The notes beneath the pieces are model-generated. The model was not told the DNA's origin and searched no databases. It saw only the letters and a list, made by a program, of their open reading frames with translations. Positions 5,396 through 32,000 of a stretch of 32,000 nt of DNA are shown piece after piece (the stretch's first letter is position 1; every line of letters begins with the position of its first letter). The translations under genes and the position numbers were made by a program. Source of the stretch: Candidatus Saccharimonadota bacterium (GTDB lineage: Bacteria > Patescibacteriota > Gracilibacteria > UBA1369 > 2-02-FULL-48-14); the NCBI GenBank assembly GCA_016699145.1, contig CP064962.1, positions 420,001 to 452,000 of the forward strand, in the 5' to 3' direction.

Positions 5396-5481
5396 TAATA
5401 AAATGGATGATAAGGTAAAAGAAAAAGAGTATAAACCTTTAAATTGAAATGTCAATGTCAAGAAAGTTCTAGCTTCAGCCT

Positions 5482-5503
5482 TAACCGCTTTCAGAAGCGG
5501 TTA
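5482..5503 (-). terminator. Perfect 9-bp hairpin (TAACCGCTT-TCAG-AAGCGGTTA) just downstream of the ATP-grasp gene stop
   Basis: Read directly from the sequence. There is no clear U-tract on the minus strand, so intrinsic-terminator function is uncertain. Confidence 0.3.
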
Positions 5504-6849: not shown

Positions 6850-6939
6850 GCACTTGAAGTAGCAGATGTACTTCAAGTGCGAATAGCTTTCCTGGACAGT
6901 ACAACAAATAGAGCGCACCACAGTGCAGCGGGAGCCATG

Positions 6940-6947
6940 AAAAAAAG
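6940..6947 (+). other. A7G slippery heptamer: probable programmed -1 ribosomal frameshift site joining IS5 OrfA to OrfB
   Basis: The sequence is AAAAAAAG. The 0 frame ends 5 codons later (..MKKRGHKR*). The -1 frame is open from 6912 and reads ..KKGPQALGRSRGGYTTKIH, the conserved IS5-family junction. Confidence 0.6.
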
Positions 6948-8854: not shown

Positions 8855-8908
8855 GTATTTTTGTTATCCCCTAAGTATACAGAATTACAGGAGAAAATTC
8901 AAGATTGT

Positions 8909-10164: not shown

Positions 10165-11727
10165 TTACATTTCTCCTGAAGGAATACGCTTTTTTAGATC
10201 CAGATAGTCCATAATAGCTTCTGGCGTCCATTTCAAAAATTCTGGATCCCGTTCCACTTCGGTATAGAGCACTTTATAAATATCTACCACCATAGGGTTC
10301 ATCATCTCATAAAAAGTCACCTGCCTTGATAACTGAATAAATTCATCTAAAGCAAATTTATCATCATAAACCGCCATATCAATTCCAGTAGCAGGCAGCA
10401 GATCACCGGACTGAGTTTCTAAGAAAGAAACCACTGTCCCTCCCCCCGACATCTCCTTGGTCTGCAAGGGCTCAATGGCCCTAGCTTCTGCTTCTTCATC
10501 CACTTCTTTCAAAAGTCGCATCCAAGCCTGCTTGGTCTGAGTCAAATCACTCACTTGAGAAAAACCTCCCAAGCACTTATAACCATAATAACAAGCCGCC
10601 ATCACATAACAGAGCATCATTGAAGGGAAAATTTTCTTCATTTGTAGAGCCTTCGTAATCTCTTCCGGTGTATAGTCATACTGGTGCTCCCCATCCGGAC
10701 AAACCAGTTTGCCATCTTGAAGCACAAAACGAATGCGATGATTCTTACTATCCAGGCCCCAAAAGAAGTAGGTTCCTAAGTCTTTTTGCAGATCAAAAGC
10801 CCCTGGAATACCATTGAAGTACTGACGAGCGAGTTCCTGGTATTTTTTATCAAAGAGCAGCTTATACAAAAGCGAGTCAGGCTTGTTAAGATGAAATTTC
10901 ACCAAAAGCTCAGTCATCACCGTTTCAATGTCCAAATAAATCAGATTAGGAACGGCAGTTCCTTCCTTCTTAAAGAGTTCAGGCCAGAGTTTATAGTTGA
11001 TGATCGTGATTTGAGTACTGAGATCTGGAGCCGCTAGAACCTGTTCATCCAAAAAGAAATGATCAAGTAAACCCTTCACTCCTTCGGCTTTCTTAGTAAG
11101 CACTAGACCTTCTTGAACCTTACGAGCCAAAGCCTCCTTAGCGCGAAACACATCCTCTTTATTGAAAGCACGCGCATTGTAGACCACGGACATCTTCTCT
11201 TTATCAGGCAAAACAGGGAGGCGAATGAAATCTTCCGAACCTCGATTATTACCATGAAACACAATCCCACGGGGATAAGCGGAGGGGTTGTTAAGAGAAA
11301 CACTGGCAAAAGAAAGCACCATCATATACTTAAGCACTGGATCCGTTAACTCATGATAAGGCAAAACGGAGATGATATTGGAATTGATCCAGTAAGGGTG
11401 AGTGATGGGGCCATGGTGATCTGTTGTAGAGAGTACGTGATACTTGGCCAACTGAGCAGCAACTTCTTGAGCGACCGTAGGATTCAATCGTTGTTTCAAA
11501 AGGTCCTCCACTATCGAAATAAACTCCTTACGACGCTCATCTAAAGCCGGCATGGGATTGATATCCAAAAAACCGCGCGTGTACTCATAGAGACTCGAGC
11601 GGTTGCCGTGCTTTTCCATGATCTCCTTGAGAATCGGCGTACGTTCCCAAATGGCTTCCCATATTGGAAGTAGAGGGTCTGGGGTAGATGATTTAGAAGG
11701 GTCCGATTTGGAAGGTTCAAAGCTCAT
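10165..11727 (-). CDS. Hypothetical protein, 520 aa, no recognisable domain
   Basis: Long uninterrupted ORF with an ATG start, on the same strand and closely spaced with the flanking operon genes. I could not identify any motifs. Confidence 0.6.
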   Translation of the reverse strand: MSFEPSKSDPSKSSTPDPLLPIWEAIWERTPILKEIMEKHGNRSSLYEYTRGFLDINPMPALDERRKEFISIVEDLLKQRLNPTVAQEVAAQLAKYHVLSTTDHHGPITHPYWINSNIISVLPYHELTDPVLKYMMVLSFASVSLNNPSAYPRGIVFHGNNRGSEDFIRLPVLPDKEKMSVVYNARAFNKEDVFRAKEALARKVQEGLVLTKKAEGVKGLLDHFFLDEQVLAAPDLSTQITIINYKLWPELFKKEGTAVPNLIYLDIETVMTELLVKFHLNKPDSLLYKLLFDKKYQELARQYFNGIPGAFDLQKDLGTYFFWGLDSKNHRIRFVLQDGKLVCPDGEHQYDYTPEEITKALQMKKIFPSMMLCYVMAACYYGYKCLGGFSQVSDLTQTKQAWMRLLKEVDEEAEARAIEPLQTKEMSGGGTVVSFLETQSGDLLPATGIDMAVYDDKFALDEFIQLSRQVTFYEMMNPMVVDIYKVLYTEVERDPEFLKWTPEAIMDYLDLKKRIPSGEM

Positions 11728-12611: not shown

Positions 12612-13001
12612 ATGATCCCTCTTTTGCCAAAAGCCATTGCTCAAAAGTACGGCATCGATTTTGCCATCGCCTTCGGCTCTCAAGTCAGCGGACAAACTCA
12701 TGCCGAAAGCGATCTGGACCTCGCGGTTCACAGTTCAAAGAATCCAAGCCTTAAAGAAGAACTCCACCTACTCAGCGAGCTCAGTGCTTTTTATTCAAAG
12801 GAGGTGGACTTGTGCTGGATCAATGAAAATGTCAGCGCCCTACTCTACGGAGAATGGGCAAAAAACAGTCAACTGCTCTACGGAAACGAAGAAGACTATC
12901 AAGTTTTCTGCATTGAAGCGCTCAAGAAATTCCTAGACTTTGAACCCTATTTCAAACTCCAGGAGCAAGCCTTACAAGAACGTTTACGTCAACTCAGCTA
13001 A
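12612..13001 (+). CDS. mntA: MNT-type nucleotidyltransferase, antitoxin of a HEPN/MNT (type VII-like) toxin-antitoxin pair
   Basis: The motif GSQVSGQTHAESDLDLAV matches the minimal nucleotidyltransferase signature G-S-x(n)-D-x-D. It lies directly upstream of a DUF86/HEPN gene. Confidence 0.75.
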   Translation: MIPLLPKAIAQKYGIDFAIAFGSQVSGQTHAESDLDLAVHSSKNPSLKEELHLLSELSAFYSKEVDLCWINENVSALLYGEWAKNSQLLYGNEEDYQVFCIEALKKFLDFEPYFKLQEQALQERLRQLS

Positions 13002-13006
13002 CACCT

Positions 13007-13432
13007 ATGCCAAATAAAAGTCTCATTCAAAGAAAAATTCAAGAAATTCTGAAGCAGCTTCTTTTTTTAGATGAATTGACTCGCGAAAATGCAATCGCCA
13101 TTTTAGACGATGAAAAAACCTTGTACCTGGCAGAACGAGTGATGGAAAGATTGATCGGCGCAGCCATCGACATCAACATGCATCTGCTTAAAGATTTGAA
13201 ACAAGAAATCCCAGCAAACTATCGAGATTCTTTTATTGGACTCTCCAAAATCAATGTTTTAAATGAAGCTTTCGCAAAACAAATCGCACACTCCATAGGT
13301 TTGCGCAACATTCTCATTCATGAATACCAACAGTTGATCAATGAAAAATTCTTTGAAGCCATGAAAGAAGCAAAAACCGATTATAAGACTTACACTGAAG
13401 CCATTCTTCACTTCCTCTCTCAACATCCGTGA
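13007..13432 (+). CDS. hepT: HEPN-domain (DUF86, HepT-like) toxin
   Basis: The R-x4-H-x-Y HEPN motif is present as RNILIHEY. The protein is 141 aa and is paired with MNT 5 nt upstream. Confidence 0.75.
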   Translation: MPNKSLIQRKIQEILKQLLFLDELTRENAIAILDDEKTLYLAERVMERLIGAAIDINMHLLKDLKQEIPANYRDSFIGLSKINVLNEAFAKQIAHSIGLRNILIHEYQQLINEKFFEAMKEAKTDYKTYTEAILHFLSQHP

Positions 13433-14505
13433 ACTTCCCGACCCGTCACTCCCGCTTTTGCGAACTCTTCCCGGGCGAAAAACCCTTTCGTTGGAAGCAA
13501 ATCGAAGAGGGGCTTTTTCAGGTTCAAAACAAGGGCTGGAAGGATCTCACCGGCCTCCCAAAAATCCTGCGAGAAACGCTAGAAAAAGAAGTCCCCTGGA
13601 TGAGTGGCGAGGCTCAAACCGTGCTCTGCTCCAGTCGCGGCGACACCTACAAAGTGCTGATCAAACTCGCGGATGGAAACCTCGTTGAAACCGTTCTGAT
13701 GGAAAATATGCGCGATCAATGGACCATCTGCGTCTCTTCCCAAGTCGGTTGTGCCATGCGTTGCGGCTTCTGTGCCACGGGTAAAATGGGCCTCACTCGC
13801 AGTCTCACGGCAGACGAAATCATGGATCAGTACCGGTTTTGGAAAAGCTTCCTCACCGAACATCCTCGCCTGCCTCAGCGCATCTCGAATGTGGTTTTTA
13901 TGGGCATGGGCGAACCGCTGGCCAATTATGAAAATGTAAAAAAAGCCATCCACACATGGCTGGCCTACACCGACCTCGGCCCCACCCACATCACCGTTTC
14001 CACCGTGGGCATCTTGCCTGTGCTCGAACAAATCCTCACCGACCCCGATTGGCCGGACACTCGCATCGCCATTTCGCTGCACAGCGCCGTACCCGAGACC
14101 CGCAAAGAAATCGTGCCCAGCTCTTTTGAAGGATTCATTCCCAAACTGCACGACTGGATCCGCAAGTACCAAAAAGTACACGGCAATCGCCGTCACCACC
14201 TGACCTTCGAGTACGTGATGCTCAAAAATGTGAACGACACCGAGCAGCACGCACGCGTGCTGGCCGACTTTGCTGCCGAGCTCGGAGACATCAAAATAAA
14301 CCTGATTCCCTACAATTTCACAGACATGGGCGTGGAACGCAGCAGCAACAACCAAATCCATCGCTTCAAAGACATCGTCGAAAAGGCAGGCGTCGAAATC
14401 ACCGTGCGCAAAACCATGGGTGACGACATCGCAGCAGCCTGCGGGCAACTCATTACTCTTGGCAGGAAGAATCTTTGTGATATTCTTCCGTCCGAAAATA
14501 TTTAA
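13429..14505 (+). CDS. rlmN: 23S rRNA/tRNA adenine-C2 methyltransferase RlmN (radical SAM)
   Basis: Motifs CVSSQVGCAMRCGFCATG (CxxxCxxC radical SAM cluster), GMGEPLANY, and a C-terminal AACGQL. The GTG start overlaps the hepT stop (GTGA). Confidence 0.9.
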   Translation: MNFPTRHSRFCELFPGEKPFRWKQIEEGLFQVQNKGWKDLTGLPKILRETLEKEVPWMSGEAQTVLCSSRGDTYKVLIKLADGNLVETVLMENMRDQWTICVSSQVGCAMRCGFCATGKMGLTRSLTADEIMDQYRFWKSFLTEHPRLPQRISNVVFMGMGEPLANYENVKKAIHTWLAYTDLGPTHITVSTVGILPVLEQILTDPDWPDTRIAISLHSAVPETRKEIVPSSFEGFIPKLHDWIRKYQKVHGNRRHHLTFEYVMLKNVNDTEQHARVLADFAAELGDIKINLIPYNFTDMGVERSSNNQIHRFKDIVEKAGVEITVRKTMGDDIAAACGQLITLGRKNLCDILPSENI

Positions 14506-15928: not shown

Positions 15929-17932
15929 ATGCTGGCTCTCGCCTTCACCTTCTTTGCATACAGTGCCCTTGCGCGGACCCTCAGCCGACGCCTCGATGAA
16001 AGCGGCTCTGCCGCTTTGACAATCGCATTGCTATTCACGCTCATGATCGTGAGCGTGGAAGGACTCGGCACCTTCGGGCTCTTTTCACAAAACAGCCTAC
16101 TCGTGTGTAGCATCCTCGCACTCATGGGGGGCTTTTTCCTTCGACCCAAAGATGCACCCCTCCCCACGAACGGAAAGTTTTTTTACCTGCTGCTCGGTCT
16201 GCTCGCCACCTTGCCCGCGCTCATCCCTTCAGGTGAAACGGACAGCTTCGGCTACCACTTGCCCATCGTGAATCAACTGCTTGAAACGGGCAGCGTCTGG
16301 AACGTCTTCTTCGCGGGCTTCGTGGGGCCCAACACTTATTTCCCTGCGAATCATGAAGCCCTTCAAGCCTTCCTCGCAGCCTTCACCCACAACACCGAAG
16401 CAGGCTTCCTCGTGAACCTCAGTGCACTCGCCCTCTTCTTCTTCAGTCTTAAAGAAAGCCTTGGGACAAAAGCAGCCCCGCGCTTCTCCGCCCTTTTCGT
16501 GCTCGCCGCAACCTGTACGCCCTTCCTTTTTAAACAAATTGTCAACCAGCAAATCGACCTCTTCCTTTTCGGTGTATTCGGCAGCGCCCTGGCCTTTGCG
16601 GCAAGCAGCTTCTTGAACGGGAAAAAAGTGGACTTCACAAAGGCCTGCCTCCTGCTCGGACTCTGCCTCGGCTCGAAATACAACGCCCTTCCACAAGTGC
16701 TGGTGCTATTGCCCTTTTTGTTCGCCCTTGCAATCCACCAAAAACACCGCCTCCACGACTACGCATTTAACATCGGCCTCACTCTCACAGCAGGGCTTTT
16801 TTGGTACATACGCAACGCAGTGATCGCGGGCAACCCTCTCTATCCCTTTGGCATCAGCGCCGGGCCCATTCACTGGATCGGCCACAGCAGCTTCGTGCAA
16901 GAAACAGAAGGCAGCTCCTTGCTCTCGCACCTTCAGAGTGACGGCCTTCACAGCACCCTCCGGCACGTGCTTTCCAATGGCGAATTCCACAATGAATTGG
17001 GGATGACCGCCGTCTACCTCCTGACCGGAACCACAGTGCTGCTCGCGCTCAAACTGTTTAGCCGAAGCCACCGAACTCGCATGCTCAGCTTCGCCCTACT
17101 CGCCATCGCCGCCGGAGAACTGCTCTACTACCTCAGCGCTCCCTACACCTTCACGCTCTGGAACCAAACCATCCGCTACGCGAGCCCCCTCTTTGCCCTC
17201 GTGCCCGTAGCGCTCATGTTTTGCGCCTCCACGCCCAAAAGGCAGTCCTTCCTTGGACTCTTCGCTCTGGTCTTCATCGGCAGCCAACTCAGCTCCAGCT
17301 TCCTCAGCAAGGATCACGTACAGACCTTGCTACTGGATCAATTTCACGCACACCCTTTCCTCATTTTCAGCCCCTTACTGCTCGCCTTCACACTCTCGAT
17401 CTTCCTCACGTCTAAAAAAACCCCGCAAACCACGCTGTTTCGCCTCGCCATCGCCAGTCTGCTCGTGAGCCTCTTCACAACCACCGTGGTACCTCAACTC
17501 AAAACGCCCAGTGGAGAAGCGAGCACTCTCACCGAAGACGCCTACCTTTCCGTAGATTTGCCAGGCTACAAGATGTTGCTTCCATTTTTAGAACTGCTCC
17601 GCCCACAGCCCAAAGGTAGCATCGCTTTAACTGGCCTCACGCCTTACGCGCTCTTCGAAAAAGAAGGCTTCACAGCAGTTTACATCAACACCGATGGCTG
17701 CCTCACCTGCACCTATCCGGACTACCGCAGCAAAAGCGCCTCCATCCGCACGGCACCCAACGAAGCCGCATGGAAAGCCGCACTCGCAACCGAGGACATC
17801 GCCTACCTGCTCGTCTCCACCACCTACGAACCCACGATCGTGATGCACGAAAAAACCTGGGCCGACACAGATCTCGAACACTTTGAACTGCTGCTACAAA
17901 AAGGACCGCTGAGTCTCTACCGCCTACGCTGA
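15929..17932 (+). CDS. Large polytopic membrane protein, probably a GT-C-type (ArnT/PMT-like) glycosyltransferase
   Basis: 667 aa, about 14 hydrophobic segments followed by a soluble C-terminal domain. It is convergent with, and overlaps by 16 nt, a polyprenyl-phosphate GT2 gene. The family assignment rests on architecture and context only. Confidence 0.5.
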   Translation: MLALAFTFFAYSALARTLSRRLDESGSAALTIALLFTLMIVSVEGLGTFGLFSQNSLLVCSILALMGGFFLRPKDAPLPTNGKFFYLLLGLLATLPALIPSGETDSFGYHLPIVNQLLETGSVWNVFFAGFVGPNTYFPANHEALQAFLAAFTHNTEAGFLVNLSALALFFFSLKESLGTKAAPRFSALFVLAATCTPFLFKQIVNQQIDLFLFGVFGSALAFAASSFLNGKKVDFTKACLLLGLCLGSKYNALPQVLVLLPFLFALAIHQKHRLHDYAFNIGLTLTAGLFWYIRNAVIAGNPLYPFGISAGPIHWIGHSSFVQETEGSSLLSHLQSDGLHSTLRHVLSNGEFHNELGMTAVYLLTGTTVLLALKLFSRSHRTRMLSFALLAIAAGELLYYLSAPYTFTLWNQTIRYASPLFALVPVALMFCASTPKRQSFLGLFALVFIGSQLSSSFLSKDHVQTLLLDQFHAHPFLIFSPLLLAFTLSIFLTSKKTPQTTLFRLAIASLLVSLFTTTVVPQLKTPSGEASTLTEDAYLSVDLPGYKMLLPFLELLRPQPKGSIALTGLTPYALFEKEGFTAVYINTDGCLTCTYPDYRSKSASIRTAPNEAAWKAALATEDIAYLLVSTTYEPTIVMHEKTWADTDLEHFELLLQKGPLSLYRLR

Positions 17933-20413: not shown

Positions 20414-20548
20414 GGACGTAGCTTAGCCGAAAAGGTCTCAACCCACAAATTCAAGCCATAACCCCCCCCTCAGATCACCCAATCTGGAACACATTTCCTA
20501 CGCGGAAAACAATTCAAAAACCGTCAATTGTTTTCAATAACATTTGCT

Positions 20549-20577
20549 TTGACGGCCTTTCATATTTTCGATAACTT
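20549..20577 (+). promoter_or_regulatory. Putative promoter of nrdJ (TTGACG, 17-nt spacer, TAACTT)
   Basis: Hexamers read at 20549..20554 and 20572..20577. The -10 element is weak. Confidence 0.25.
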
Positions 20578-20597
20578 GTGGACTACCGAAGTAAGAC

Positions 20598-20613
20598 GCA
20601 CAACATATTGTGC
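20598..20613. promoter_or_regulatory. Putative NrdR box 1 (GCACAACATATTGTGC)
   Basis: Near-perfect 16-bp palindrome matching the NrdR operator consensus acaCwAtATaTwGtgt at 11 of the 12 core positions. It lies about 95 nt upstream of the nrdJ start. Confidence 0.55.
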
Positions 20614-20629
20614 CATTCTCCCCCTTCGA

Positions 20630-20645
20630 CCCCAATATACACTTC
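20630..20645. promoter_or_regulatory. Putative NrdR box 2, a weaker half-site-quality match (CCCCAATATACACTTC)
   Basis: The left half and centre (CAATATA) match the consensus; the right half is poor. The centre-to-centre distance to box 1 is 32 bp, the spacing typical of tandem NrdR boxes. Confidence 0.35.
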
Positions 20646-20707
20646 CCACGGACTCCACCTCCTTCCGCGCGGTTTTAGTTCTTTATTTCCCCATTTTTCC
20701 CACGCGT

Positions 20708-22621
20708 ATGGCTCAATCCATCACTTTACCCGATCCAGTAGCAGCTCAAAACGAAGAACACAGCCAAAAATCAGAGATTCGTCGCCCCCAAGAAGGCAAA
20801 TCCAACTCTTCCAAGGGAATTCGCATGAAACGTCGCTTCACCCAAGCCGGCCTCGACGCCTTTGACATGATGGACTACGACCTGCGCGAATCCCGCATCA
20901 AGGAGCCAAGTGGTAAAATCGTCTTCGAAATGACCAAGGTGGAAGTGCCCACAAGCTGGTCCCAACTCGCAACCGACATCATCGCTCAAAAGTACTTCCG
21001 AAAACGTGGAGTGCCCGGAACCGAACACGAAGTCAGCGCCAAACAAACCGTGCACCGCATCGCACACACCGTGCGCACTTTTGGAATGGAACACGGCTAT
21101 TTTGCCAGCGAAGAAGATGCCGAAAGCTTCGAGCAAGAACTCAAATACATGCTCATCACCCAACGTGGGGCGTTCAACTCCCCCGTATGGTTCAATTGCG
21201 GACTTTTCCATGAATACGGAGTGACGGGAGATGGAGGCAACTACGCCTGGGATTTTGCCAAAGGCGCCGTCGTAGAAATCGACAACGCCTACGCTCGCCC
21301 TCAATGCAGTGCTTGCTTCATCCAAAAAGTGGACGATTCCCTCATGGGCATTTTTGACCTCGCCAAAAACGAAGCCAAACTCTTCAAATATGGGTCTGGA
21401 ACCGGTTCCAACTTCTCAAATCTCCGCTCCAAGTACGAAATCCTCTCGGGAGGAGGCATCTCTTCCGGACTCATGTCCTTCCTCGAAGTTTTAGACCGTG
21501 GAGCCGGAGCCATTAAATCTGGAGGAACCACTCGTCGCGCCGCCAAAATGGTGGTGGTGGATGTGGATCACCCCGAAATCAAAGACTTCGTAAACTGGAA
21601 AGTAGAATCCGAAAAAAAGGCTCGCGCCCTCATCGCCGCCGGTTACGACAGCGACTGGCGTGGAGAAGCTTACCACACCGTTTCTGGACAAAACTCCAAC
21701 AACTCCGTGCGTGTGACCGATGAATTCATGCACGCCGTAGAAAAGAATGAAAAATTCTGGACCAAACGCCGCACCGACGGAAAACCTCATGAAGAAATGG
21801 ATGCGCAAGCGCTTTTCGATGAAATCTGTAAGGCCGCTTGGGGCTGTGCCGATCCCGGACTTCAATTCGACACCACCATCAACGACTGGCACACCAGCCC
21901 TGTGAGCGGACGCATCAACGGCTCCAACCCCTGCTCCGAATACATGTTCCTCGACGACACAGCCTGCAACCTCGCCTCACTCAACTTGGTGAAGTTCATG
22001 AATGAAGACGGCAGTTTCGACATCGCCGCCTATCGCCACGCCGTGGAAATTTTCTTCCTCGCTCAAGAAATCCTCGTAGACCTCTCTTCTTACCCCACCG
22101 ATCGCATCGCCCAAAACAGCCACGACTTTCGTCCGCTGGGACTCGGCTACGCCAATCTTGGTACCCTACTCATGACCAGCGGCATCGCCTACGACAGCGA
22201 CGAAGGACGCGCCATCGCGGCCGCCCTCACCGCTATTATGCACTGCCACGCGAACGTCATGTCCGCTGAAATCGCCAAGGTGGTGGGTCCCTTTGCCGCC
22301 TACGAAAAGAACCGCGAACCCATGCTCAAAGTGATGCGCATGCATGAAGAAGCCGCCAAAGCCATCAACAAAAAGCTCTGCCCTGCAGACCTCTACGAAG
22401 CCGCTGTGGAAGACGCAGCCCTCGCCATTGAAAAAGGAGAAAAATACGGCTACCGCAACGCGCAAGCCACCGTGCTCGCCCCCACCGGAACCATCGGGCT
22501 TTTGATGGACTGCGACACCACTGGTGTGGAACCTGAATTCTCCATCGTAAAATGGAAAAAACTCGCCGGAGGAGGACACTTCAAGATCATCAACAAATCC
22601 ATCCCCAGTGCCCTCGAATGA
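20708..22621 (+). CDS. nrdJ: Class II (adenosylcobalamin-dependent) ribonucleotide reductase, N-terminal and catalytic part
   Basis: Motifs WSQLATDIIAQKYFRK, SACFIQ, GSGTGSNFSNLR, SNPCSEY, CNLASLNL. I chose the ATG at 20708 (MAQSITLP..) because the track ORF from 20528 covers the CT-rich leader. Confidence 0.85.
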   Translation: MAQSITLPDPVAAQNEEHSQKSEIRRPQEGKSNSSKGIRMKRRFTQAGLDAFDMMDYDLRESRIKEPSGKIVFEMTKVEVPTSWSQLATDIIAQKYFRKRGVPGTEHEVSAKQTVHRIAHTVRTFGMEHGYFASEEDAESFEQELKYMLITQRGAFNSPVWFNCGLFHEYGVTGDGGNYAWDFAKGAVVEIDNAYARPQCSACFIQKVDDSLMGIFDLAKNEAKLFKYGSGTGSNFSNLRSKYEILSGGGISSGLMSFLEVLDRGAGAIKSGGTTRRAAKMVVVDVDHPEIKDFVNWKVESEKKARALIAAGYDSDWRGEAYHTVSGQNSNNSVRVTDEFMHAVEKNEKFWTKRRTDGKPHEEMDAQALFDEICKAAWGCADPGLQFDTTINDWHTSPVSGRINGSNPCSEYMFLDDTACNLASLNLVKFMNEDGSFDIAAYRHAVEIFFLAQEILVDLSSYPTDRIAQNSHDFRPLGLGYANLGTLLMTSGIAYDSDEGRAIAAALTAIMHCHANVMSAEIAKVVGPFAAYEKNREPMLKVMRMHEEAAKAINKKLCPADLYEAAVEDAALAIEKGEKYGYRNAQATVLAPTGTIGLLMDCDTTGVEPEFSIVKWKKLAGGGHFKIINKSIPSALE

Positions 22622-23735
22622 GCAAATCGAAGAAATCAAAGCACACCTTGAAAAGGCCAAAACCATCGACGAATGGACGCCACACATCTCTCCAAAAGCG
22701 CTCATGTCTAAGGGTCTCAGCACACAACAAATCCAAGAAGCTCGCCTTTACTTCGAAGGCGCCCAAACACTGGAAGGTGCCCCTCACCTCAAAGAAGAAG
22801 ATCTCGCCGTGTTCGACTGCGCCAACAAGTGCGGAAACGGCAAGCGCTACATCGCCCCTCTCGGGCACGTGAAGATGATGGCCGCTGTGCAACCCTTCCT
22901 CTCCGGAGCCATTTCCAAGACCGTAAACCTACCCAACGAAGCGACCGTGCAGGACATTAAAGACACCTATTTTGAATCCTGGAAGCTGGGCCTCAAAGCC
23001 ATCGCCCTCTACCGCGACGGATGCAAGCAGTCTCAAGCCCTGAACACCAAGAGTGACTCCAAGATGGCAGATGAAGCCGCTGCTGAAGGAGTGAGCGGGC
23101 CTCTCCGTGGAACCAAACTACAAATGCCTGTGAAACGCCGTGGCATCACTGTGGAAGCGAGCATCGCCGGACAAAAGATGTTCCTCCGCACCGGTGAATA
23201 CGACGACGGCAAGCTCGGAGAAATCTTCATCGACACCTTTAAGGAAGGGGCTTCCTACCGCAGCCTGCTCAACTGTTTCGCCGTAGCCATTTCCGTGGGC
23301 CTTCAATACGGAGTGCCTCTTGAAAAATACGTGGACAACTTCACCTTCACTCGCTTCGAACCGAGCGGATTCACAACTCACCCCAACGTACGCACCGCCA
23401 CCTCTATTGTCGACTTCATCTTCAGAGTGCTCGGCATGGAATACCTCGGTCGTACCGACTTCGTGCACGTGGCCCCCAAGACCACTCAACTGGATGAAAG
23501 TCGCTCCCGCAGCCGCATCACCGAAGCGATCATGGGCGAAGCCGCCGTGGCCGCCGCAGACAATGCAAGCCCTCTTTCCACCCAGGCTCAAACCGCTGCC
23601 GACGACGGCCTCACAAAACAACTCGCCGGCATGATGGGCGACGCCCCTCTCTGCAACACTTGCGGACACGTGACCGTGCGCAACGCAACCTGTTACAAAT
23701 GTCTCAACTGCGGCAACAGCATGGGCTGCAGCTGA
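22608..23735 (+). CDS. nrdJ: Class II ribonucleotide reductase, C-terminal part, in the +1 frame relative to the first ORF with a 14-nt overlap and a GTG start
   Basis: Motifs FDCANKCGNGKRYIAPLGHVKMMAAVQPFLSGAISKTVNLPNEATV and ALYRDGCKQSQ, plus the C-terminal zinc-ribbon CNTCGH..CYKCLNCGNSMGCS. Confidence 0.85.
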   Translation: MPSNEQIEEIKAHLEKAKTIDEWTPHISPKALMSKGLSTQQIQEARLYFEGAQTLEGAPHLKEEDLAVFDCANKCGNGKRYIAPLGHVKMMAAVQPFLSGAISKTVNLPNEATVQDIKDTYFESWKLGLKAIALYRDGCKQSQALNTKSDSKMADEAAAEGVSGPLRGTKLQMPVKRRGITVEASIAGQKMFLRTGEYDDGKLGEIFIDTFKEGASYRSLLNCFAVAISVGLQYGVPLEKYVDNFTFTRFEPSGFTTHPNVRTATSIVDFIFRVLGMEYLGRTDFVHVAPKTTQLDESRSRSRITEAIMGEAAVAAADNASPLSTQAQTAADDGLTKQLAGMMGDAPLCNTCGHVTVRNATCYKCLNCGNSMGCS

Positions 23736-26464: not shown

Positions 26465-27370
26465 ATGGACAACAATCCCATCAGTCTCACTCAAGCTTTA
26501 AACCACATTCAATCCTGGCTCAACGCCGGCGAATACGACAAAGTGATTCAAGGCTGTTCCGAAATCTTAGAGATGGAGCCCGAAAATTCACGCGCCCTTG
26601 CGCTCATGAAAATGGCGGAACAACGCCGTCACGAAGCCACCATGGCTCCAAGCAGTGCCCCTCAAAATGGCACTCCCCTAGCTCCCAACAACGACCCTCT
26701 TGCCAATCTGCAAGTGGAGGAACGCCAGGAAGCCAATGAAGCCCGTCCCCCTTTCGAAGCCATGCCAGCCCCAAGTGCAGCCACAAGTCGAGAAAGCGCT
26801 GTCCCCTTGCGCGAAGAATTCAACGAAAGCTTGGATAAGCGCAAACTCTTTTTGGCCATGCTCGTTCCAGCAGTGCTGGTGGTGGTGCTGGGTGGAAGCC
26901 TCATTTGGTACCTTGCCGATCGAGAACGAAACGAGACCATTGCTGGCAACGGGAACTCAGACGTGAATCAATCCGTACCTGTAGACACAGCCTATTTAGA
27001 TGACAATGAAGAGCGAGTGGAACAAATGACCGCCATCAGCAGCGTCATTGAAGCGTACCGCCAAAACAAAGGGAAATACCCCGAAGCGGACGATTTAGAA
27101 CGCATTCTTGTGGAAAGTGATGAATTCAGCGAAGTGCCCAGCGATCCCAAACAAGGTGAGGTGGATGTCGAAGGCAAACCTTTCGGTTATATGTATGCAG
27201 TTTATGACAGCAAGTTTGGGAAATCCAACCAGTACTACATCCTCTCGGCCCTCTTTGAAGACAGCAAAGGAGTGGGTTACGAATGGAACGTGGGTGAAAG
27301 CGTAAAAAATTACGAAAACTACCGTGACATTGCTCAAGACAATGTGAGTTTCATTGGCAGCAGCAAATAA
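26465..27370 (+). CDS. Membrane-anchored protein with a TPR-like N-terminus, a Pro/Ala-rich linker, one TM segment, and a pseudopilin-like C-terminal globular domain
   Basis: TM segment LFLAMLVPAVLVVVLGGSLIWYL. The C-terminus (..YRQNKGKYPEADDLERIL..VPSDPKQ..GYMYAVYDS..YYILSALFED) resembles the variable globular domain of type IV pilins/pseudopilins but lacks the N-terminal prepilin motif. Confidence 0.45.
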   Translation: MDNNPISLTQALNHIQSWLNAGEYDKVIQGCSEILEMEPENSRALALMKMAEQRRHEATMAPSSAPQNGTPLAPNNDPLANLQVEERQEANEARPPFEAMPAPSAATSRESAVPLREEFNESLDKRKLFLAMLVPAVLVVVLGGSLIWYLADRERNETIAGNGNSDVNQSVPVDTAYLDDNEERVEQMTAISSVIEAYRQNKGKYPEADDLERILVESDEFSEVPSDPKQGEVDVEGKPFGYMYAVYDSKFGKSNQYYILSALFEDSKGVGYEWNVGESVKNYENYRDIAQDNVSFIGSSK

Positions 27371-27383
27371 AATCGAGTGGAAA

Positions 27384-28355
27384 ATGGCTTTCTCGTGGAA
27401 CAACTTAAAACGTCCCATTCTGGCGCTGGCCCCCATGGCAGGCTACACCGATACCGCCTATCGTCAGCTCATCAAAGGCATTGAGCCGCGCGTCATTTGC
27501 TTCACCGAGTTCACCAGCGCCGACGGCCTGGTCTACGGCAGCAAAATGACCTTAAAACAACTGGACTTCAACCCGAACGAAGAGCGCCCTTTGGTGGCTC
27601 AAATTTTTGGGAAGAAGCCTGAGCATTTCGCCAAAGCCGCCAAAATCATCGAAGAGATGGGCATCGATGCCATCGACATCAACATGGGCTGTCCTGCAAA
27701 AAAAGTGGTGTCCAGTGACCACGGCAGCGCCCTTTTAAAAAAACCTTGCCGCGCGATAGAACTGGTGGAAGCCACGGTGAAAGCCACTCAAGTTCCGGTA
27801 TCTGTAAAAACACGCATTGGCTCGGATCAATTGGATCTACCCTGGTTCGTTCAATTTTGCAAAGACCTCGAAAGCGCCGGCATTCAACTGCTCACCATCC
27901 ACGGTCGCACGGCCAAACAAATGTACACCGGTAAAGCCGACTGGGAACCCATTTACGAGGTGAAACGGAATCTAAAAATCCCAGTGATTGGGAATGGAGA
28001 CATTCGCAGCGTGGCCGATGCTCGTGAAAAACTCGGCAACCTAGATGGCGTGATGGTGGGTCGCGGCACCATGGGCAACCCCTGGCTCATGGCTGAAATT
28101 GCGGCAGATTTTTACGGCGAAACCTATGTGCCTCCCAAAACGTTTCAAGAAAAATTGCCCACCTATTTGCGCCACGCAGAGCTTTTGGCAGAATACAAAG
28201 GCGAAGAACATGGCATGAAAGAAATGCGCAAACATTTCGTGAATTTGATCCGCGGTTTCGATGGCGCGAGCGAGGCTCGCGCCCAAGTCGTGCAAATTTC
28301 CACTTTAGAAGAAGCCAAACGCGTGCTGAGTGCCTTGGCTGAATGCCAAAAATAA
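27384..28355 (+). CDS. dus: tRNA-dihydrouridine synthase
   Basis: Motifs LAPMAGYTDTAYRQL, IDINMGCPAKKV and HGRT. The ATG at 27384 is preferred over the track start at 27354. Confidence 0.85.
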   Translation: MAFSWNNLKRPILALAPMAGYTDTAYRQLIKGIEPRVICFTEFTSADGLVYGSKMTLKQLDFNPNEERPLVAQIFGKKPEHFAKAAKIIEEMGIDAIDINMGCPAKKVVSSDHGSALLKKPCRAIELVEATVKATQVPVSVKTRIGSDQLDLPWFVQFCKDLESAGIQLLTIHGRTAKQMYTGKADWEPIYEVKRNLKIPVIGNGDIRSVADAREKLGNLDGVMVGRGTMGNPWLMAEIAADFYGETYVPPKTFQEKLPTYLRHAELLAEYKGEEHGMKEMRKHFVNLIRGFDGASEARAQVVQISTLEEAKRVLSALAECQK

Positions 28356-28386
28356 GGTATACTTACAAAGATTGAACCCCTACGCC

Positions 28387-28830
28387 ATGGTTCGAAAATT
28401 CCTCGCCACCGCCTTGCTCAGTTTAACTTTGAGCTTCGTGCAACCCGCTATGGTCTCTGCCGAAACCACGAGCAACTTCAATGTGTTTGATGTGTTCAGT
28501 ATCGACGAAGAAGAAGATACAACGACTGGAAAGAGCACCATCAACGGCAGCACCACCATCAGTGATAATATCAAAGATTACGCAAAGGAACACACCGGCG
28601 GCAACGTCCCCATGGCCATCATTATGCGAGCCATCAATGTACTGATGCTGCTCATCGGTACTTTTGCTTTTTTGGTCATTTTTTACAGCGGCGTCTTGCT
28701 GGTCACCGCCAACGGAGATGAAGGAAAATTGGAAAAAGGAAAAGGCATGATTGTGCCCGCCATTTTAGGCTTGGTCTTTGCCTTTTTAGCCTATTACATC
28801 ACCGTCTTTATTCAATCGTTTTTCTACTGA
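28387..28830 (+). CDS. VirB2/TrbC-like (T4SS-pilin-like) secreted TM-hairpin protein, paralog 1
   Basis: Signal peptide MVRKFLATALLSLTLSFVQPAMVSA, then the C-terminal module ..LLIGTFAFLVIFYSGVLLVTANGDEGKLEKGKGMIVPAILGLVFAFLAYYI.. Confidence 0.6.
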   Translation: MVRKFLATALLSLTLSFVQPAMVSAETTSNFNVFDVFSIDEEEDTTTGKSTINGSTTISDNIKDYAKEHTGGNVPMAIIMRAINVLMLLIGTFAFLVIFYSGVLLVTANGDEGKLEKGKGMIVPAILGLVFAFLAYYITVFIQSFFY

Positions 28831-29627
28831 TGCGTCTCTTTGCCCTCCTCATTCTCGCTCCTTGTCTATGGATGTTCAGCATTGCACCCATCGCCTTCGC
28901 CGACACCATGAATTTAGGGGTTTGTAACTTTGGGATGCTAGGGATACAAGGCAGTCCCACCAGCAGCACCGGGCAAGCCCTGAGTGAAGAGGTCACACAA
29001 AAATCGAACGAATATGAGACGCGCTACACAGAAGCCTACAATCCCCCCTCCACACAAGAAAATTCAGAAGCTGAAACAGATACCAATTATTGTGGACAAA
29101 ACAATCCCGCCACCGGAATGATTGAAAAAGGAGATTGCACCAGTCAAGTGATCACTGAAATTTCAGAAGTGGTCAGCAGTGCCACTCTTGACGGAGACCA
29201 AAACGAAGACCGCATCATCAACCTCTATCAAGGCCTCTGCTGCCTTTCTTACAACACCGAGGTCACAACTTGTTATGAAACTCGCACTTTCTACACCGAA
29301 ACGCTCAACGAATGTAAGGCCATAGAAAACGGCGCCAACACCCTAGGCGAAAGGACCAACTGCCAACTGCAACAATGGCTCATCGCTGACACCGGAATGG
29401 GCATTTTGAAGCTGTATGTAAAACAAATTTTCACCTTTGGCGCCTTCTTGGTGGGCTCCATGGCCGTGACCACCATCATTTTGAATGGCGTGCGCATCAG
29501 CGCCACGGGCGTCAGCGGCGACATTTCAGAAGCCAAACAAAAAATCACTCAAGCTCTTTCGGGAATCATTCTGCTTTTCCTTTCGGCGTTGATCCTCTAC
29601 AGCATTAATCCTGACTTCTTCGGCTGA
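28830..29627 (+). CDS. VirB2/TrbC-like secreted TM-hairpin protein, paralog 2, with an 8-Cys ectodomain
   Basis: Signal peptide ending ..IAFA|D. The ectodomain has 8 cysteines. C-terminal module: FGAFLVGSMAVTTIILNGVRISATGVSGDISEAKQKITQALSGIILLFLSALILY. The start overlaps the upstream stop (TGATG). Confidence 0.55.
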   Translation: MRLFALLILAPCLWMFSIAPIAFADTMNLGVCNFGMLGIQGSPTSSTGQALSEEVTQKSNEYETRYTEAYNPPSTQENSEAETDTNYCGQNNPATGMIEKGDCTSQVITEISEVVSSATLDGDQNEDRIINLYQGLCCLSYNTEVTTCYETRTFYTETLNECKAIENGANTLGERTNCQLQQWLIADTGMGILKLYVKQIFTFGAFLVGSMAVTTIILNGVRISATGVSGDISEAKQKITQALSGIILLFLSALILYSINPDFFG

Positions 29628-30418
29628 TGAAAAAACTACTGCTCACCTTGCTCATGGTCCTCACCTTAGCGGTCCCTCTGGCCACCGCTGCGGTCACAGA
29701 AGTGCCCCTCATTCCGGCGCCGGACTTTTTGCCCACCCCTCCTCCAGAAACCACGGGTGGCCTACTTCAAGATTACGTACTGGACACGGCGGTGCCCAAA
29801 GCCATCAACATCGGCATTGGAATTTTAGCCCTCACCGCCTTCATGGGCATCCTCATTGCGGCAATTCAAATGCTCACGGCTTATGGAGACGAAACTAAAA
29901 TCGGACGCGGAAAAACCAACCTGCGTTACAGCATACTCGGCCTCATCATTGTGATGCTTTCTTATGCCCTTGTTTCTATTGTGGTTTCGGTGGCTCTGCC
30001 TCAAGAAAGCGAAACCTCTTGGATTCCCTCTGCCTACGCCGTGGACGTGGAACGGGACCCCAGCATTCTTTTGCCCGACGTGGAAACGCTGATCGAAAGC
30101 CATGATGAGCAAGGACGAGTCTCCTTGCCCAGCGGAGATTTTCTTGGAGAAATTGTGCCCGCCGTGGTCACCAACATCCTATATTTTGTGGGCTTTTTGC
30201 TCTTCATTGCCTTGCTTTATGGTGGCGTCCTCATTGTGATTGGACGAGGAAATGAAGAAGAAATCACTAAGGCAAAAACCATCGTCCTTTACGCATCCAT
30301 TGCGCTAGGCTTGGTCTCTTTGGGCTACGCCATTGTTTATGGCATCGTGACGCTCAACTTCAATCAAGACAGCAGCACCACTACAGACGACGCTTTTACC
30401 GAAATGCAAAATGAATAA
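29627..30418 (+). CDS. VirB2/TrbC-like secreted protein, paralog 3, carrying two TM-hairpin modules
   Basis: Signal peptide MKKLLLTLLMVLTLAVPLATA. Module a: ILALTAFMGILIAAIQMLTAYGDETKIGRGKTNLRYSILGLIIVMLSYALV. Module b: FVGFLLFIALLYGGVLIVIGRGNEEEITKAKTIVLYASIALGLVSLGYAIV. The start overlaps the upstream stop (TGATG). Confidence 0.55.
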   Translation: MKKLLLTLLMVLTLAVPLATAAVTEVPLIPAPDFLPTPPPETTGGLLQDYVLDTAVPKAINIGIGILALTAFMGILIAAIQMLTAYGDETKIGRGKTNLRYSILGLIIVMLSYALVSIVVSVALPQESETSWIPSAYAVDVERDPSILLPDVETLIESHDEQGRVSLPSGDFLGEIVPAVVTNILYFVGFLLFIALLYGGVLIVIGRGNEEEITKAKTIVLYASIALGLVSLGYAIVYGIVTLNFNQDSSTTTDDAFTEMQNE

Positions 30419-30839
30419 ATCTCTCTTCAAAAAAATCTTGCTGAGCATAATGGCCAGTGCCCTGTTCTGGAGTCTGACTCAAGGCGCTTGGGCAGTCATA
30501 CAAATTCCAGACATTACACGCCCCGACAACCTGCCAGGTTTCGAACCCATCGACACGGAAAACTCCGAGCACCCTGAACTCAATGCCACCCAAAACATCA
30601 TTCTTTTTGTGGGAAGCATGGTGAGCCAAGTTTTGCTCTTTATGGCGACCATCGCCATTATTTTTGTGATTTTAGCCGGAGCCAATTACATCTTTGCCTT
30701 TGGTAAAGACGAACGCATCGAACGTGGAAAACGCGGAGTGTTTTGGTCTTTGGCCGGACTCATCATCATCCTTCTTTCTTACTCCGTTGTACAAGGCGTC
30801 ATCTCTCTGATCTTACAAGTGGACTTTTCCACAAGATAA
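30411..30839 (+). CDS. VirB2/TrbC-like secreted TM-hairpin protein, paralog 4
   Basis: Signal peptide ..SLTQGAWA, then the module LLFMATIAIIFVILAGANYIFAFGKDERIERGKRGVFWSLAGLIIILLSYSVV. It overlaps the upstream gene by 8 nt (ATGAATAA). Confidence 0.6.
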   Translation: MNKSLFKKILLSIMASALFWSLTQGAWAVIQIPDITRPDNLPGFEPIDTENSEHPELNATQNIILFVGSMVSQVLLFMATIAIIFVILAGANYIFAFGKDERIERGKRGVFWSLAGLIIILLSYSVVQGVISLILQVDFSTR

Positions 30840-30874: not shown

Positions 30875-31231
30875 ATGAAAAACCTCACGTTTTTAGTCCT
30901 CGCCACCCTCGCCTTGACTGCTTGCAGCAGCGGCCAAAGTAAAACCGACCAAGCCGGCATCGCCATGGCTCAAGTCAGCTGCCTGCTTTTCGACGAAAGC
31001 GTCACCTTCGATCAAATCACTCAAAAAAGCGATGAATTCTTGAAAGAACAGGGCTGGGAAAGCTTGGATGATTTCGACGCCTACCTCAGTTCCATCAAAG
31101 GCACGGCAGACGCACAGGCCATCAAAACAGCAGCCTTAGACAGCATGTCAGAATCCTGCAAAGAAGGCATCGCCGAAGTGGGAGGAACTCCCGAAGAATT
31201 CATGGATGCCATGTTGGAAGTCCAAGAATAA
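30875..31231 (+). CDS. Small lipoprotein
   Basis: MKNLTFLVLATLALTAC: signal peptide with the lipobox L-T-A-C. I chose the ATG at 30875 over the longer track ORF, which overlaps the previous gene. Confidence 0.55.
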   Translation: MKNLTFLVLATLALTACSSGQSKTDQAGIAMAQVSCLLFDESVTFDQITQKSDEFLKEQGWESLDDFDAYLSSIKGTADAQAIKTAALDSMSESCKEGIAEVGGTPEEFMDAMLEVQE

Positions 31232-31233
31232 TT

Positions 31234-32000
31234 TCACTCCGCCATTGGAGGGAATAGCGCTTCCTGCAAAAGCAGATGGTCTTCGCCAAGTTGCAGCAGC
31301 ATCTTGTGTGACGCATCTGGAATCACAGACGCCAGCATCCTTCCAAGTTCACGACACACGACAATCAAATTGCCAAGCACGCTTTCGAGGCGTGCTTTGT
31401 CGGTCTTGGCCAATTCCCACGGTTTTTCTTGATCCACATACAAATTTGCGGCTCGAGCGAGTTCCATCACCGATTCCAATGCCCCTTTGATATCGAAACT
31501 CAAAAAACCTTCATGAAAACCTTTCCACGCCTTATCGATGGAATCTTGAAGCTTGCCATCCCCTTGAGGCACCTTTCCTTCAAAATGCTTAAGGGCCAAA
31601 GTCAAAACGCGGCGCAGCAAGTTGCCTAAGGTGTTTTGCAGTTCATCTTTATAAACTGTTTTAAAGCGTTCTTGTGAAAAATCTCCGTCTCCATCGCTGG
31701 GAATTTCACGCAACAAATAATAACGAACGGCATCCACTCCGTAACGGTCCACCAATTCCATGGGGTTCACCACATTGCCCAAAGTTTTACTCATCTTCTG
31801 ACCTTCGCTGGTCACAAAACCGTGCACATAAACCGCTTTGGGCAAAGGCAGCTGCGCGGCCATCAGCATCCCAATCCAAATTCCACAGTGAAAACGAATG
31901 ATGTCCTTGCCAATCAAATGCACATCCGCCGGCCAAAACTTTTTCCACTTTGCATCGTCATCCGCATAACCGAGCGCCGTTAAATAATTGGTGAGCGCAT
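31234..32000 (-). CDS. metG: Methionyl-tRNA synthetase, C-terminal portion. The gene continues beyond the window end.
   Basis: KMSKS motif present as KMSKTLGNVV; also HLIGKDIIRFH. The frame remains open upstream of 31923 (..TNYLTALGYADDDAKWKKFWPADV). Confidence 0.9.
   Translation of the reverse strand, partial: ALTNYLTALGYADDDAKWKKFWPADVHLIGKDIIRFHCGIWIGMLMAAQLPLPKAVYVHGFVTSEGQKMSKTLGNVVNPMELVDRYGVDAVRYYLLREIPSDGDGDFSQERFKTVYKDELQNTLGNLLRRVLTLALKHFEGKVPQGDGKLQDSIDKAWKGFHEGFLSFDIKGALESVMELARAANLYVDQEKPWELAKTDKARLESVLGNLIVVCRELGRMLASVIPDASHKMLLQLGEDHLLLQEALFPPMAE

Follow-up and report, generated by a model that had tools for sequence, protein, structure and literature searches.

The VirB2-like pilins of the Patescibacteria are a current puzzle of type IV secretion system (T4SS) research, being essential in Southlakia and belonging to monoderm epibionts. 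Essential predicted pilins were found within the T4SS gene cluster of Candidatus Southlakia epibionticum (Wang et al. 2023; PMC10633639), and the six sequence-divergent pilins of Southlakia have been called remarkable for a monoderm (2025 review, PMC12857230). A survey of 3,035 Patescibacteria genomes, searched with the Pfam families PF04956 and PF18895, reports 441 arrays of 2-11 VirB2-like genes with approximately 25% identity within arrays, for which host-range or antigenic variation is suggested (Quinonero-Coronel et al. 2025; PMC12102498). The same survey counts 5,713 homologues of VirD4-like type IV coupling proteins (T4CPs), only 148 of them near virB4, and describes the class Gracilibacteria as having dispersed T4SS parts and an undetectable VirB6. 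A further point of comparison is provided by the Ced and Ted systems for DNA import in archaea, which consist of an ATPase, pilins with two transmembrane (TM) segments and a pilin-derived polytopic protein; they are chromosomal, 'domesticated' and devoid of a relaxase, and the TedC pilin is processed by signal peptidase I (SPase I) (PMC9905601).

Here we describe a window of 32,000 nucleotides from a Candidatus Saccharimonadota bacterium (GenBank assembly GCA_016699145.1, contig CP064962.1, positions 420,001 to 452,000), in which four tandem genes for divergent pilin-like proteins (P1 to P4) and a small lipoprotein gene (P5) lie between dus and metG (Table 1). The preliminary description of this stretch had presented the array as an uncharacterised system. 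Such arrays were published between 2023 and 2025 (PMC10633639; PMC12102498; PMC12857230), and a tandem divergent VirB2-like array in a genome of the candidate phyla radiation (CPR) is an already known kind of thing. What appears to be undescribed, as far as the accessible literature on these arrays goes, is the cassette found in related genomes: a T4CP-like ATPase, four paralogues and a lipoprotein, with ATPase-P1 fusions and ATPase-less variants. We consider it somewhat probable that the region represents the pilin-like portion of this conserved Peregrinibacteria/Gracilibacteria cassette and that it would contribute to a heteromeric surface structure served by an ATPase. No new class of system is revealed by this, and the functional roles assigned below are read from sequence.

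All four array genes encode a signal peptide with an AxA-type SPase I site (VSA/E, AFA/D, ATA/A and AWA/V in P1 to P4), a hydrophilic external segment and, judging from hydropathy, paired long hydrophobic helices around a short charged loop. Since P3 holds two helix pairs, the array carries five such hairpin modules, which can be aligned in register around a loop consensus of approximately G-[DN]-E-x-K-[IL]-x-[KR]-[GA]-K and share 18-29% identity with one another. The P2 loop is the outlier among the five; the loop motif drawn up in the preliminary description is a good fit to the other four. A conserved external linker of approximately 45 aa (...QGRVSLPSGDFLGEIVPA...) joins the two P3 modules, and P2 contains nine cysteines, one in the signal peptide and eight in the ectodomain, all of the latter invariant in 22 homologues. 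The mature proteins measure approximately 122 (P1), 240 (P2), 240 (P3) and 114 aa (P4), and in orthologue alignments the ectodomains vary more than the hairpins. Hidden Markov models (HMMs) built from the orthologues of a single paralogue match the other paralogues at 19-78 bits, and every module matches PF18895, so that the paralogy of P1 to P4 is real and not a chance resemblance. Start/stop overlaps link each array gene to the next, with 1-nt TGATG junctions at P1/P2 and P2/P3 and an 8-nt overlap (ATGAATAA) at P3/P4. The preliminary description had recognised this organisation, including the doubled module of the third gene, the overlaps, the eight-cysteine ectodomain of the second protein and the position of the array between dus and metG; the small lipoprotein gene that it mentioned, giving no coordinates, is now placed downstream of P4. 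Its observation that the window holds no VirB4, VirB6 or VirD4-type gene also stands: Pfam scans, and tblastn searches with the ATPase of related loci, agree that the 32 kb contain no T4SS component elsewhere, and the tblastn search of the whole window yielded neither a copy nor a pseudogene of that ATPase.

The absence of machinery that the preliminary description had noted is not intrinsic to the system. Loci around P3 orthologues and around ATPase orthologues in GTDB genomes, together with metagenome contigs matched by the P3 profile, were annotated with HMMs built for this analysis. They display a recurrent order that begins with ribonucleotide reductase and runs past an FtsQ-like gene to dus, an ATPase of 680-700 aa, P1-P2-P3-P4, a lipoprotein of 117-120 aa, metG on the opposite strand and type IV pilus (T4P) genes. 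In 22 related loci (L001, L003-L010 and 13 metagenome loci) this dedicated VirD4/HerA-like ATPase lies directly upstream of P1, between dus and P1, where the window carries a deletion scar. Each of P1 to P4, like the lipoprotein, has a one-to-one orthologue in the relatives, where the order is fixed; the overlaps (-1, -4 or -8 nt) are kept in 16 of 18 loci, and every lineage examined has metG as the convergent neighbour of the array. The preliminary description had proposed to test whether gene order and overlaps are conserved, and the outcome is in keeping with a complex of fixed stoichiometry. In one relative (L004) P1 and P2 are separated by an oppositely oriented 396 aa open reading frame (ORF) without a Pfam match (7787-8977, minus strand), which breaks an otherwise universal abutment.

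The association with the ATPase is specific. Orthologues of the cassette ATPase (>1100 bits) have P1-P5 downstream in every case that could be checked, and the ATPase paralogues that these genomes encode (400-500 bits, with an N-terminal PF26449 domain) are almost never adjoined by pilin modules. One of the few exceptions is a Ca. Altimarinota chromosome (L025, OZ246423.1), in which three tandem pilin-like genes (6940-8233) are situated approximately 1.4 kb upstream of a PF26449-type paralogue. The relatives' ATPase matches the TrwB_AAD_bind (PF10412; 47.3 bits, gathering score 20.5), DUF87/HerA, TraG-D_C and T4SS-DNA_transf models; its PF12696 score is 24 bits (gathering score 22). It possesses the P-loop signature of T4CPs, with Walker A (GKTGMGKS) and Walker B motifs, and residues D544/E545 are invariant; what it lacks is their N-terminal TM anchor. 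The protein has no TM segment at all (maximum 19-residue Kyte-Doolittle hydropathy of 1.39) and begins with a private domain of approximately 280 aa. Structures in the PDB (HerA, TrwB) match it weakly and mainly over the P-loop region. In four protein clusters (P0127, P0149, P0153 and P0161) the ATPase is fused to P1, its C-terminus continuing directly into the P1 methionine and signal peptide. The topology of such a fusion would be workable and would give the ATPase a membrane tether. The cassette pairs pilin-like proteins with one of the many 'orphan' T4CP-like ATPases of Patescibacteria, which number about two in each genome and seldom lie close to virB4, and the fusions back this link.

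In the window itself the stop codon of dus (28355) and the start codon of P1 (28387) are 31 nt apart, and these 31 nt (28356-28386) align with the 3' end of the sisters' ATPase gene and the ATPase-P1 spacer. The sister ATPase ORF ends in approximately 20 nt (GGTATACTGTTAAGGATTAG, encoding ...RYTVKD*) whose counterpart is retained here (Table 1), and a local DNA alignment to the sister L007 spans window positions 28349-28377. The left edge of the deletion is seen in dus, where the truncated and altered 3' end of the window copy (...EEAKRVL-SALAECQK*) differs from that of the sisters (...EEAKRVL-NEVAEKLKDAHVVDTPTTFFKE*; eight orthologues aligned). The sisters have an imperfect direct repeat of approximately 20 nt in the 3' ends of dus (GTGGCTGAGAAACTCAAAGA, VAEKLK) and of the ATPase gene (GTTGAAGAAAAGCTCAAAAA, VEEKLK), and the window crosses from the dus repeat to the ATPase repeat exactly at the junction. 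The simplest reading is that a repeat-mediated deletion of approximately 2.1 kb removed the ATPase gene in this lineage, and the array would look orphaned here because of that deletion. The list of ATPase homologues contains no orthologue from this genome's contig, which is suggestive and falls short of proof. A second ATPase-less locus, L093, consists of dus, an unrelated 233 aa ORF, an intact P1-P5 array and metG, so that the loss has apparently happened more than once. Genotypes of this kind could take the place of 'knock-outs' in comparisons among uncultivable organisms.

The clean, repeat-bounded junction, with its altered yet open dus 3' end and retained ATPase tail, also bears on the notion that the missing ATPase is merely an artefact of assembly or binning, or a minority deletion variant. 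The record is a metagenome-assembled genome (MAG), and the frameshift in its ribonucleotide reductase gene, close to short C runs, may be a sequencing error. Nevertheless the junction resembles neither a collapsed repeat nor a homopolymer error, which makes an artefact unlikely, and the array resides on a contig of 1.34 Mb; we regard the chance of such an artefact as very small.

The deletion has left a promoter-like element in place, its -10 box within the retained tail of the ATPase gene (Table 1). Relatives carry the comparable motif TTGAAG-N17-TATA[AC]T in the last ATPase codons (V-E-E-K...R-Y-N/T) of essentially all orthologous loci, approximately 20 in number. There it precedes P1 by 8-43 nt or more, and its synonymous positions are fixed (GTT for Val, AGG for Arg). 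This conservation suggests that the array may have a promoter of its own, which the deletion spared.

Loss of the ATPase raises the question whether the array is still maintained. In a relative-rate comparison of this genome with the sisters L005, L006, L010 and L007, using five outgroups, P1 to P3 show no acceleration in this lineage: their identity to the outgroups is 0.46 for P1 (0.41-0.45 in the sisters), 0.45 for P2 (0.42-0.46) and 0.59 for P3 (0.56-0.58). P4 is slightly lower, at 0.565 against 0.60-0.62 in the sisters. Among the flanking genes, dus, a 187-aa ORF, a 301-aa ORF and the FtsQ-like gene are normal in rate, and the metG fragment stands at 0.67 against 0.72-0.73. The lipoprotein P5 is strongly diverged (0.31 against 0.51-0.55), a possible onset of decay that counts against a system still in full use. 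Together with the deletion itself, the slight shift in P4 and further damage in the genome (the split ribonucleotide reductase gene and nested insertion sequence (IS) elements), it could indicate that the array is a non-functional leftover on its way to pseudogenisation. Such a fate seems improbable to us in view of five intact ORFs whose signal peptides, invariant cysteines and loop motifs are all preserved, the unaccelerated P1-P3, and the retention of the overlaps and the promoter-like element. Moreover, the independently ATPase-less L093 keeps an intact array, and a distant lineage carries the array without the cassette ATPase.

Membership of the modules in PF18895 (T4SS_pilin, gathering score 26.6 bits) is solid. 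Whole P1 and P3 exceed the gathering score, with 29.0 and 39.1 bits (the latter over two stretches), P2 and P4 fall below it with 19.4 and 21.1 bits, and all 28 isolated modules, comprising the five of this window and those of related loci, match at E<=1 (best 4.4e-11). Six of the 28 modules also match PF04956 (TrbC/VirB2; best E 1.9e-5), a family to which the whole proteins of the window gave no match at E<=1. The NCBIfam model NF045849 is matched weakly by P1, P3 and P4 (E 4e-7 to 1e-3, 19-30 bits with a cutoff of 40). None of P1 to P4 matches PF07963 (N_methyl), and their signal peptides are of the SPase I type and not of the class III that marks type IV pilins. P3 is identical to the NCBI protein IPG41_02440 from a Candidatus Peregrinibacteria MAG, where it is encoded on a contig of 1,338,973 bp. 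Its profile retrieves 19,924 cluster representatives at E<=1e-3 and only 37 at E<=1e-30, which implies a huge superfamily and a narrow P3 type; the P3 orthologues number approximately 125, at 42-100% identity. The expansion of pilin-like families in small-genome bacteria, to which the preliminary description had alluded, is thus strong in the Patescibacteria, as the survey likewise indicates (PMC12102498). P5 belongs to no significant Pfam or NCBIfam family. The AlphaFold2 model of P3, based on an alignment of 47 sequences, contains a signal helix and hairpins at residues 44-84/89-123 and 172-205/210-242 with a predicted local distance difference test (pLDDT) score of approximately 80-90, the linker between them being of low confidence; the P2 model (22 sequences; pLDDT 78.5, predicted template modelling score 0.67) places an alpha/beta ectodomain atop the hairpin. 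The likeness to VirB2/TrbC claimed at the outset holds at the level of the Pfam family and, for part of the modules, of PF04956; to solved VirB2 and TraA no direct profile or fold similarity was detected. For this reason the label 'pilin' rests on Pfam family and architecture and not on a demonstrated homology to filament pilins; with the partial PF04956 matches in support, homology to filament-forming VirB2 may nonetheless be inferred.

How the cassette might work can be outlined as follows. After cleavage of the signal peptide each module would form a membrane hairpin with both termini outside and its K/R-bearing loop in the cytoplasm, an orientation suggested by the signal peptide, the acidic external segments and the basic residues of the loops. 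A soluble ATPase of the hexameric type would dock on these loops, P1 first, since the ATPase-P1 fusions suggest that docking takes place on this subunit, and would extract or organise the subunits into one heteromeric surface structure of fixed stoichiometry, either a short T4SS-type pilus or stalk or a channel. P1 and P4 could serve as bulk subunits, P2 could display its disulfide-rich ectodomain in an adhesin or tip role, the double-module P3 could form a VirB6/CedA-like base and the lipoprotein P5 could act as an envelope accessory. Transcription of the array would be driven by the promoter-like element in the 3' end of the ATPase gene that survived the deletion. In the present genome the array is probably still expressed and may be served in trans by a paralogue ATPase or by the genome's putative VirB4 system; alternatively, it may have a membrane role that does not depend on an ATPase. 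The assembly mechanism is modelled by analogy on the extraction of VirB2 by T4SS ATPases and on Ced/Ted (PMC9905601).

A heteromeric assembly is preferred over a set of alternative pilins because the four subunits are distinct, fixed, individually orthologous and translationally coupled. Interchangeable major pilins, one or a few of them in use at any time for antigenic or host-range variation, have been proposed for Patescibacteria arrays (PMC12102498) and for the VirB2 paralogues of Bartonella and Anaplasma. The low identity among the window's modules and the greater variability of the ectodomains agree with this proposal. However, the one-to-one orthologues keep a constant order and number even between lineages with ATPases only 43% identical, the architectures differ in kind (a Cys-rich domain, a tandem module, a short form), the start/stop overlaps are conserved, and no copy-number variation was seen among more than 20 loci, so that variation of this type is hardly to be expected here. 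The cassette offers a natural case for a heteromeric assembly of fixed composition as opposed to the antigenic-variation reading of the literature.

Several results weigh against the proposed ATPase-served surface structure. VirB4, VirB6, VirB8 and VirB3 are all absent within +/-10 kb in six relatives (precomputed Pfam annotation), and the linkage of VirB4 with VirB6, VirB3 or VirB8 that marks a T4SS gene cluster was seen neither there nor in the 32 kb window. Among the matches listed for the ATPase profile against genome contigs, mostly paralogues, none comes from this contig, and a relocated ATPase may still exist. With ectodomains of 40-165 aa and one tandem subunit, the proteins depart from mature VirB2 and TraA of approximately 70 aa. 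Validated sequences of Agrobacterium tumefaciens VirB2 and F TraA aligned to the module profile with a probability of only 0.1-0.2% (hhalign), profile searches with the pilin-like proteins found no pilins in the PDB, and Foldseek searches of the PDB with the full P3 and P2 models returned nothing significant (best E for P2 0.3). As for the promoter, it is a consensus match whose bases also encode conserved residues, and consensus promoter sites are no more numerous in this region than chance would give. The filament, the complex and the interaction between ATPase and pilins are, in short, proposals made from gene content and sequence.

Some of these results are also compatible with a different role, in which the proteins would be permanent membrane components, a VirB3/VirB6-like platform or channel that perhaps cooperates with the neighbouring T4P machinery, and not filament subunits. 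In every relative a T4P block, made up of PilN, PilO, PilC/T2SSF, two or three N_methyl pilins and a protein of approximately 330-360 aa without assignment, lies just past metG (Table 1); it is not visible in the window, which ends inside metG. In a distant lineage with 32-37% P3 identity the array adjoins metG and consists of five single-module genes, P3 being split in two (the split form is seen in L109, L110, L112 and L115-L118). Here a bona fide PilT (TIGR01420, 447 bits for L111) takes the place of the cassette ATPase upstream of P1, at a distance of 7 nt. In three loci of this lineage (L109 5561-9147, L110 2015-5559 and L111 5689-9220) pilT abuts the five-gene array and no lipoprotein homologue was detected. 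The T2SSE-type ATPase beside the distant-lineage array had been considered as a VirB11, a candidate that was dropped once NCBIfam identified it as PilT and part of the neighbouring T4P genes. Elsewhere, polypilins (P0278 of 820 aa, P0287 of 583 aa, P0285, P0296 and others) contain 6-8 tandem T4SS_pilin modules with loops of the GGNEE..KK type, which implies a covalent link between adjacent hairpins in any structure that they form. Up to eight modules in one polypeptide are awkward for a helical homopolymer, and linked hairpins are no worse suited to a bundle or ring than to a helical fibre, which keeps a static membrane complex a serious rival. The N-termini of VirB6 and CedA are, in addition, homologous to pilins (PMC9905601), and the solved pilins gave no similarity. 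On the other hand the T4P genes run in the opposite direction to the array, with metG in between, synteny in streamlined genomes need not imply function, the partner of the array in the closer lineages is a VirD4/HerA-like and not a T4P ATPase, and membership in PF18895/TrbC favours the VirB2 lineage. On balance we regard a platform of this sort as unlikely, if well worth keeping in mind, and favour the ATPase-served heteromeric assembly.

A bolder version of that assembly, which we put forward as tentative and rather doubtful, is that the six-gene unit would be a self-contained minimal T4SS derivative of Peregrinibacteria/Gracilibacteria, not described before and composed of the soluble VirD4/HerA-like ATPase, four specialised VirB2-like subunits with five hairpins (one subunit with a disulfide-rich head) and the lipoprotein, which would build a Ced/Ted-like heteromeric surface conduit without VirB4 or VirB6. 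If this were true, the intact and constrained arrays left behind by the ATPase deletions in the present genome and in L093 would mean that the hairpin assembly has a function for which its cognate motor is not needed.

Two further classifications of the locus were tried and discarded. A mobile element is contradicted by tblastn searches of 72,556 plasmids and 50,697 phages, which gave no match to P3, and by flanks of conserved housekeeping genes. A defence system is not supported either, as the ATPase matches PADLOC mad8/HerA weakly (61 bits), P1 to P5 have no such match, and the locus is syntenic in the core genome. The other approximately 28 kb of the window are occupied by housekeeping genes, IS elements and a toxin-antitoxin pair (Table 1). 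The class II ribonucleotide reductase, a single gene of approximately 1000 aa in relatives, is interrupted by a frameshift near 22610-22620 (...KSIPSALE* / ...NEQIEEIK) that could reflect a pseudogene or a sequencing error at short C runs; a suspected frameshift in metG proved not to be real, as the gene runs off the end of the window. The two IS200/Y1 transposase ORFs have identical Pfam scores, and the second lies between the halves of an IS4/5-type transposase. An S-layer-anchored protein that combines S-layer homology (SLH) domains with a beta-propeller in a CPR genome is preceded by a BNR/sialidase-like ORF. Two large ORFs have no Pfam family at E<=1e-3, and the longer of them lies in a stretch at 16-18 kb of high GC content (0.55-0.56) and strongly negative GC skew.

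Table 1. Features of the array locus, of the rest of the 32 kb window and, in the last row, of related loci
Feature	Position	Strand	Description
dus (tRNA dihydrouridine synthase)	27354-28355	+	Pfam PF01207, 280 bits
Promoter-like element	28335-28363	+	TTGGCT-N17-TATACT; spans deletion junction, -10 box in retained ATPase tail; consensus scan
ATPase remnant and spacer	28356-28386	+	last ~20 nt of ATPase gene (GGTATACTTACAAAGATTGA, ...RYTVKD*); DNA alignment to L005, L006, L007, L010
P1	28387-28830	+	147 aa; signal peptide, short acidic ectodomain, one hairpin module, conserved C-terminal QSFFY
P2	28830-29627	+	265 aa; signal peptide, ~165 aa Cys-rich ectodomain, one hairpin module, atypical loop GVSGDISEAKQK
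P3	29627-30418	+	263 aa; signal peptide, two hairpin modules, acidic C-terminal tail
P4	30411-30839	+	142 aa; signal peptide, short conserved N-terminal segment IQxPDxxRPxNLP, one hairpin module
P5 lipoprotein	30875-31231	+	start MKNLTFLVLATLALTAC; lipobox LTAC, two further Cys
metG (methionyl-tRNA synthetase), 3' part	31234-32000	-	Pfam; frame open to window end
BNR/sialidase-like ORF	506-1675		upstream of SLH protein
S-layer-anchored surface protein	1700-4078	+	792 aa; SLH domains and beta-propeller (PF09826, 519 bits)
Nested IS	4474-7388		IS200/Y1 transposase ORFs 4474-4908 and 6330-6764 (-); IS4/5-type parts DUF4096 6065-6397 and DDE 6999-7388
Large ORF	10165-11727	-	520 aa
Toxin-antitoxin pair	12612-13432	+	MNT-like nucleotidyltransferase (PF18765)/HepT ribonuclease
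Radical SAM gene	13429-14505		next to toxin-antitoxin pair
Large ORF	15929-17932	+	667 aa
Class II ribonucleotide reductase	20528-23735	+	two overlapping ORFs, 20528-22621 and 22608-23735
T4P block of relatives	L001 13293-18360; L003 14860-19628; L005 9450-14438; L006 10008-15038; L007 6003-10872	-	past metG

Set beside the described systems, P1 to P4 share with VirB2, TrbC and TraA the cleavable signal peptide, the two hydrophobic helices, the short loop with basic residues and the predicted N-out/C-out orientation. They differ from the small hairpin-only mature subunit of approximately 65-75 aa by their ectodomains and tandem module, and also by the lack of linked VirB4, VirB5 or VirB6 and by their monoderm host. 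The pilin-like protein of Mycoplasma integrative and conjugative elements (ICEs; NF045849, Mbov_0395 family) is likewise a small hairpin of a monoderm, MPF-FATA-type system, and P1, P3 and P4 match the whole of its 80-residue model, yet at scores far below the 40-bit cutoff, and the Mycoplasma protein is encoded by one gene that forms part of a complete ICE. The relatives' ATPase resembles the T4CPs VirD4, TrwB and TraD in its TrwB_AAD_bind, TraG-D_C and T4SS-DNA_transf matches, but has the unique N-terminal domain of approximately 280 aa in place of their N-terminal transmembrane domain. Its fusion to the two-helix P1 recalls the VirB3-VirB4 fusions, in which the ATPase is membrane-anchored, with the difference that here the fusion is at the ATPase C-terminus and to a pilin-like protein.

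With Ced/Ted (the ATPases CedB/TedB, the pilins CedA1/CedA2/TedC and the polytopic CedA/TedA) the cassette has in common one ATPase of the HerA/VirB4 superfamily, small two-helix proteins and a larger protein built from pilin-like modules. The likeness is architectural only: there is no membership by sequence, the NCBIfam CedD model being matched at 34.5 bits (cutoff 600) in the P-loop alone, and the cassette ATPase fits T4CP models best, not VirB4. The nearest relatives are the Patescibacteria T4SS arrays, among them the array of six pilins that is essential in Ca. Southlakia epibionticum ML1, the TM7x 'Sec-secreted array' and the 441 arrays of the survey, which share PF18895 membership, tandem genes, approximately 25% identity between paralogues, Sec signal peptides, a chromosomal location, a monoderm ultra-small host and no relaxase nearby. 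In its accessible part the published survey includes no analysis of linkage between T4CPs and pilins (PMC12102498). The Saccharibacteria arrays lie inside a VirB4/VirB3/VirB6 cluster, whereas this cassette has none of these genes within 10 kb and, in the relatives, its own soluble VirD4/HerA-like ATPase. Unlike the other Patescibacteria arrays, it is a fixed set of individually orthologous proteins that includes a double-module and a Cys-rich subunit and is followed by a lipoprotein.

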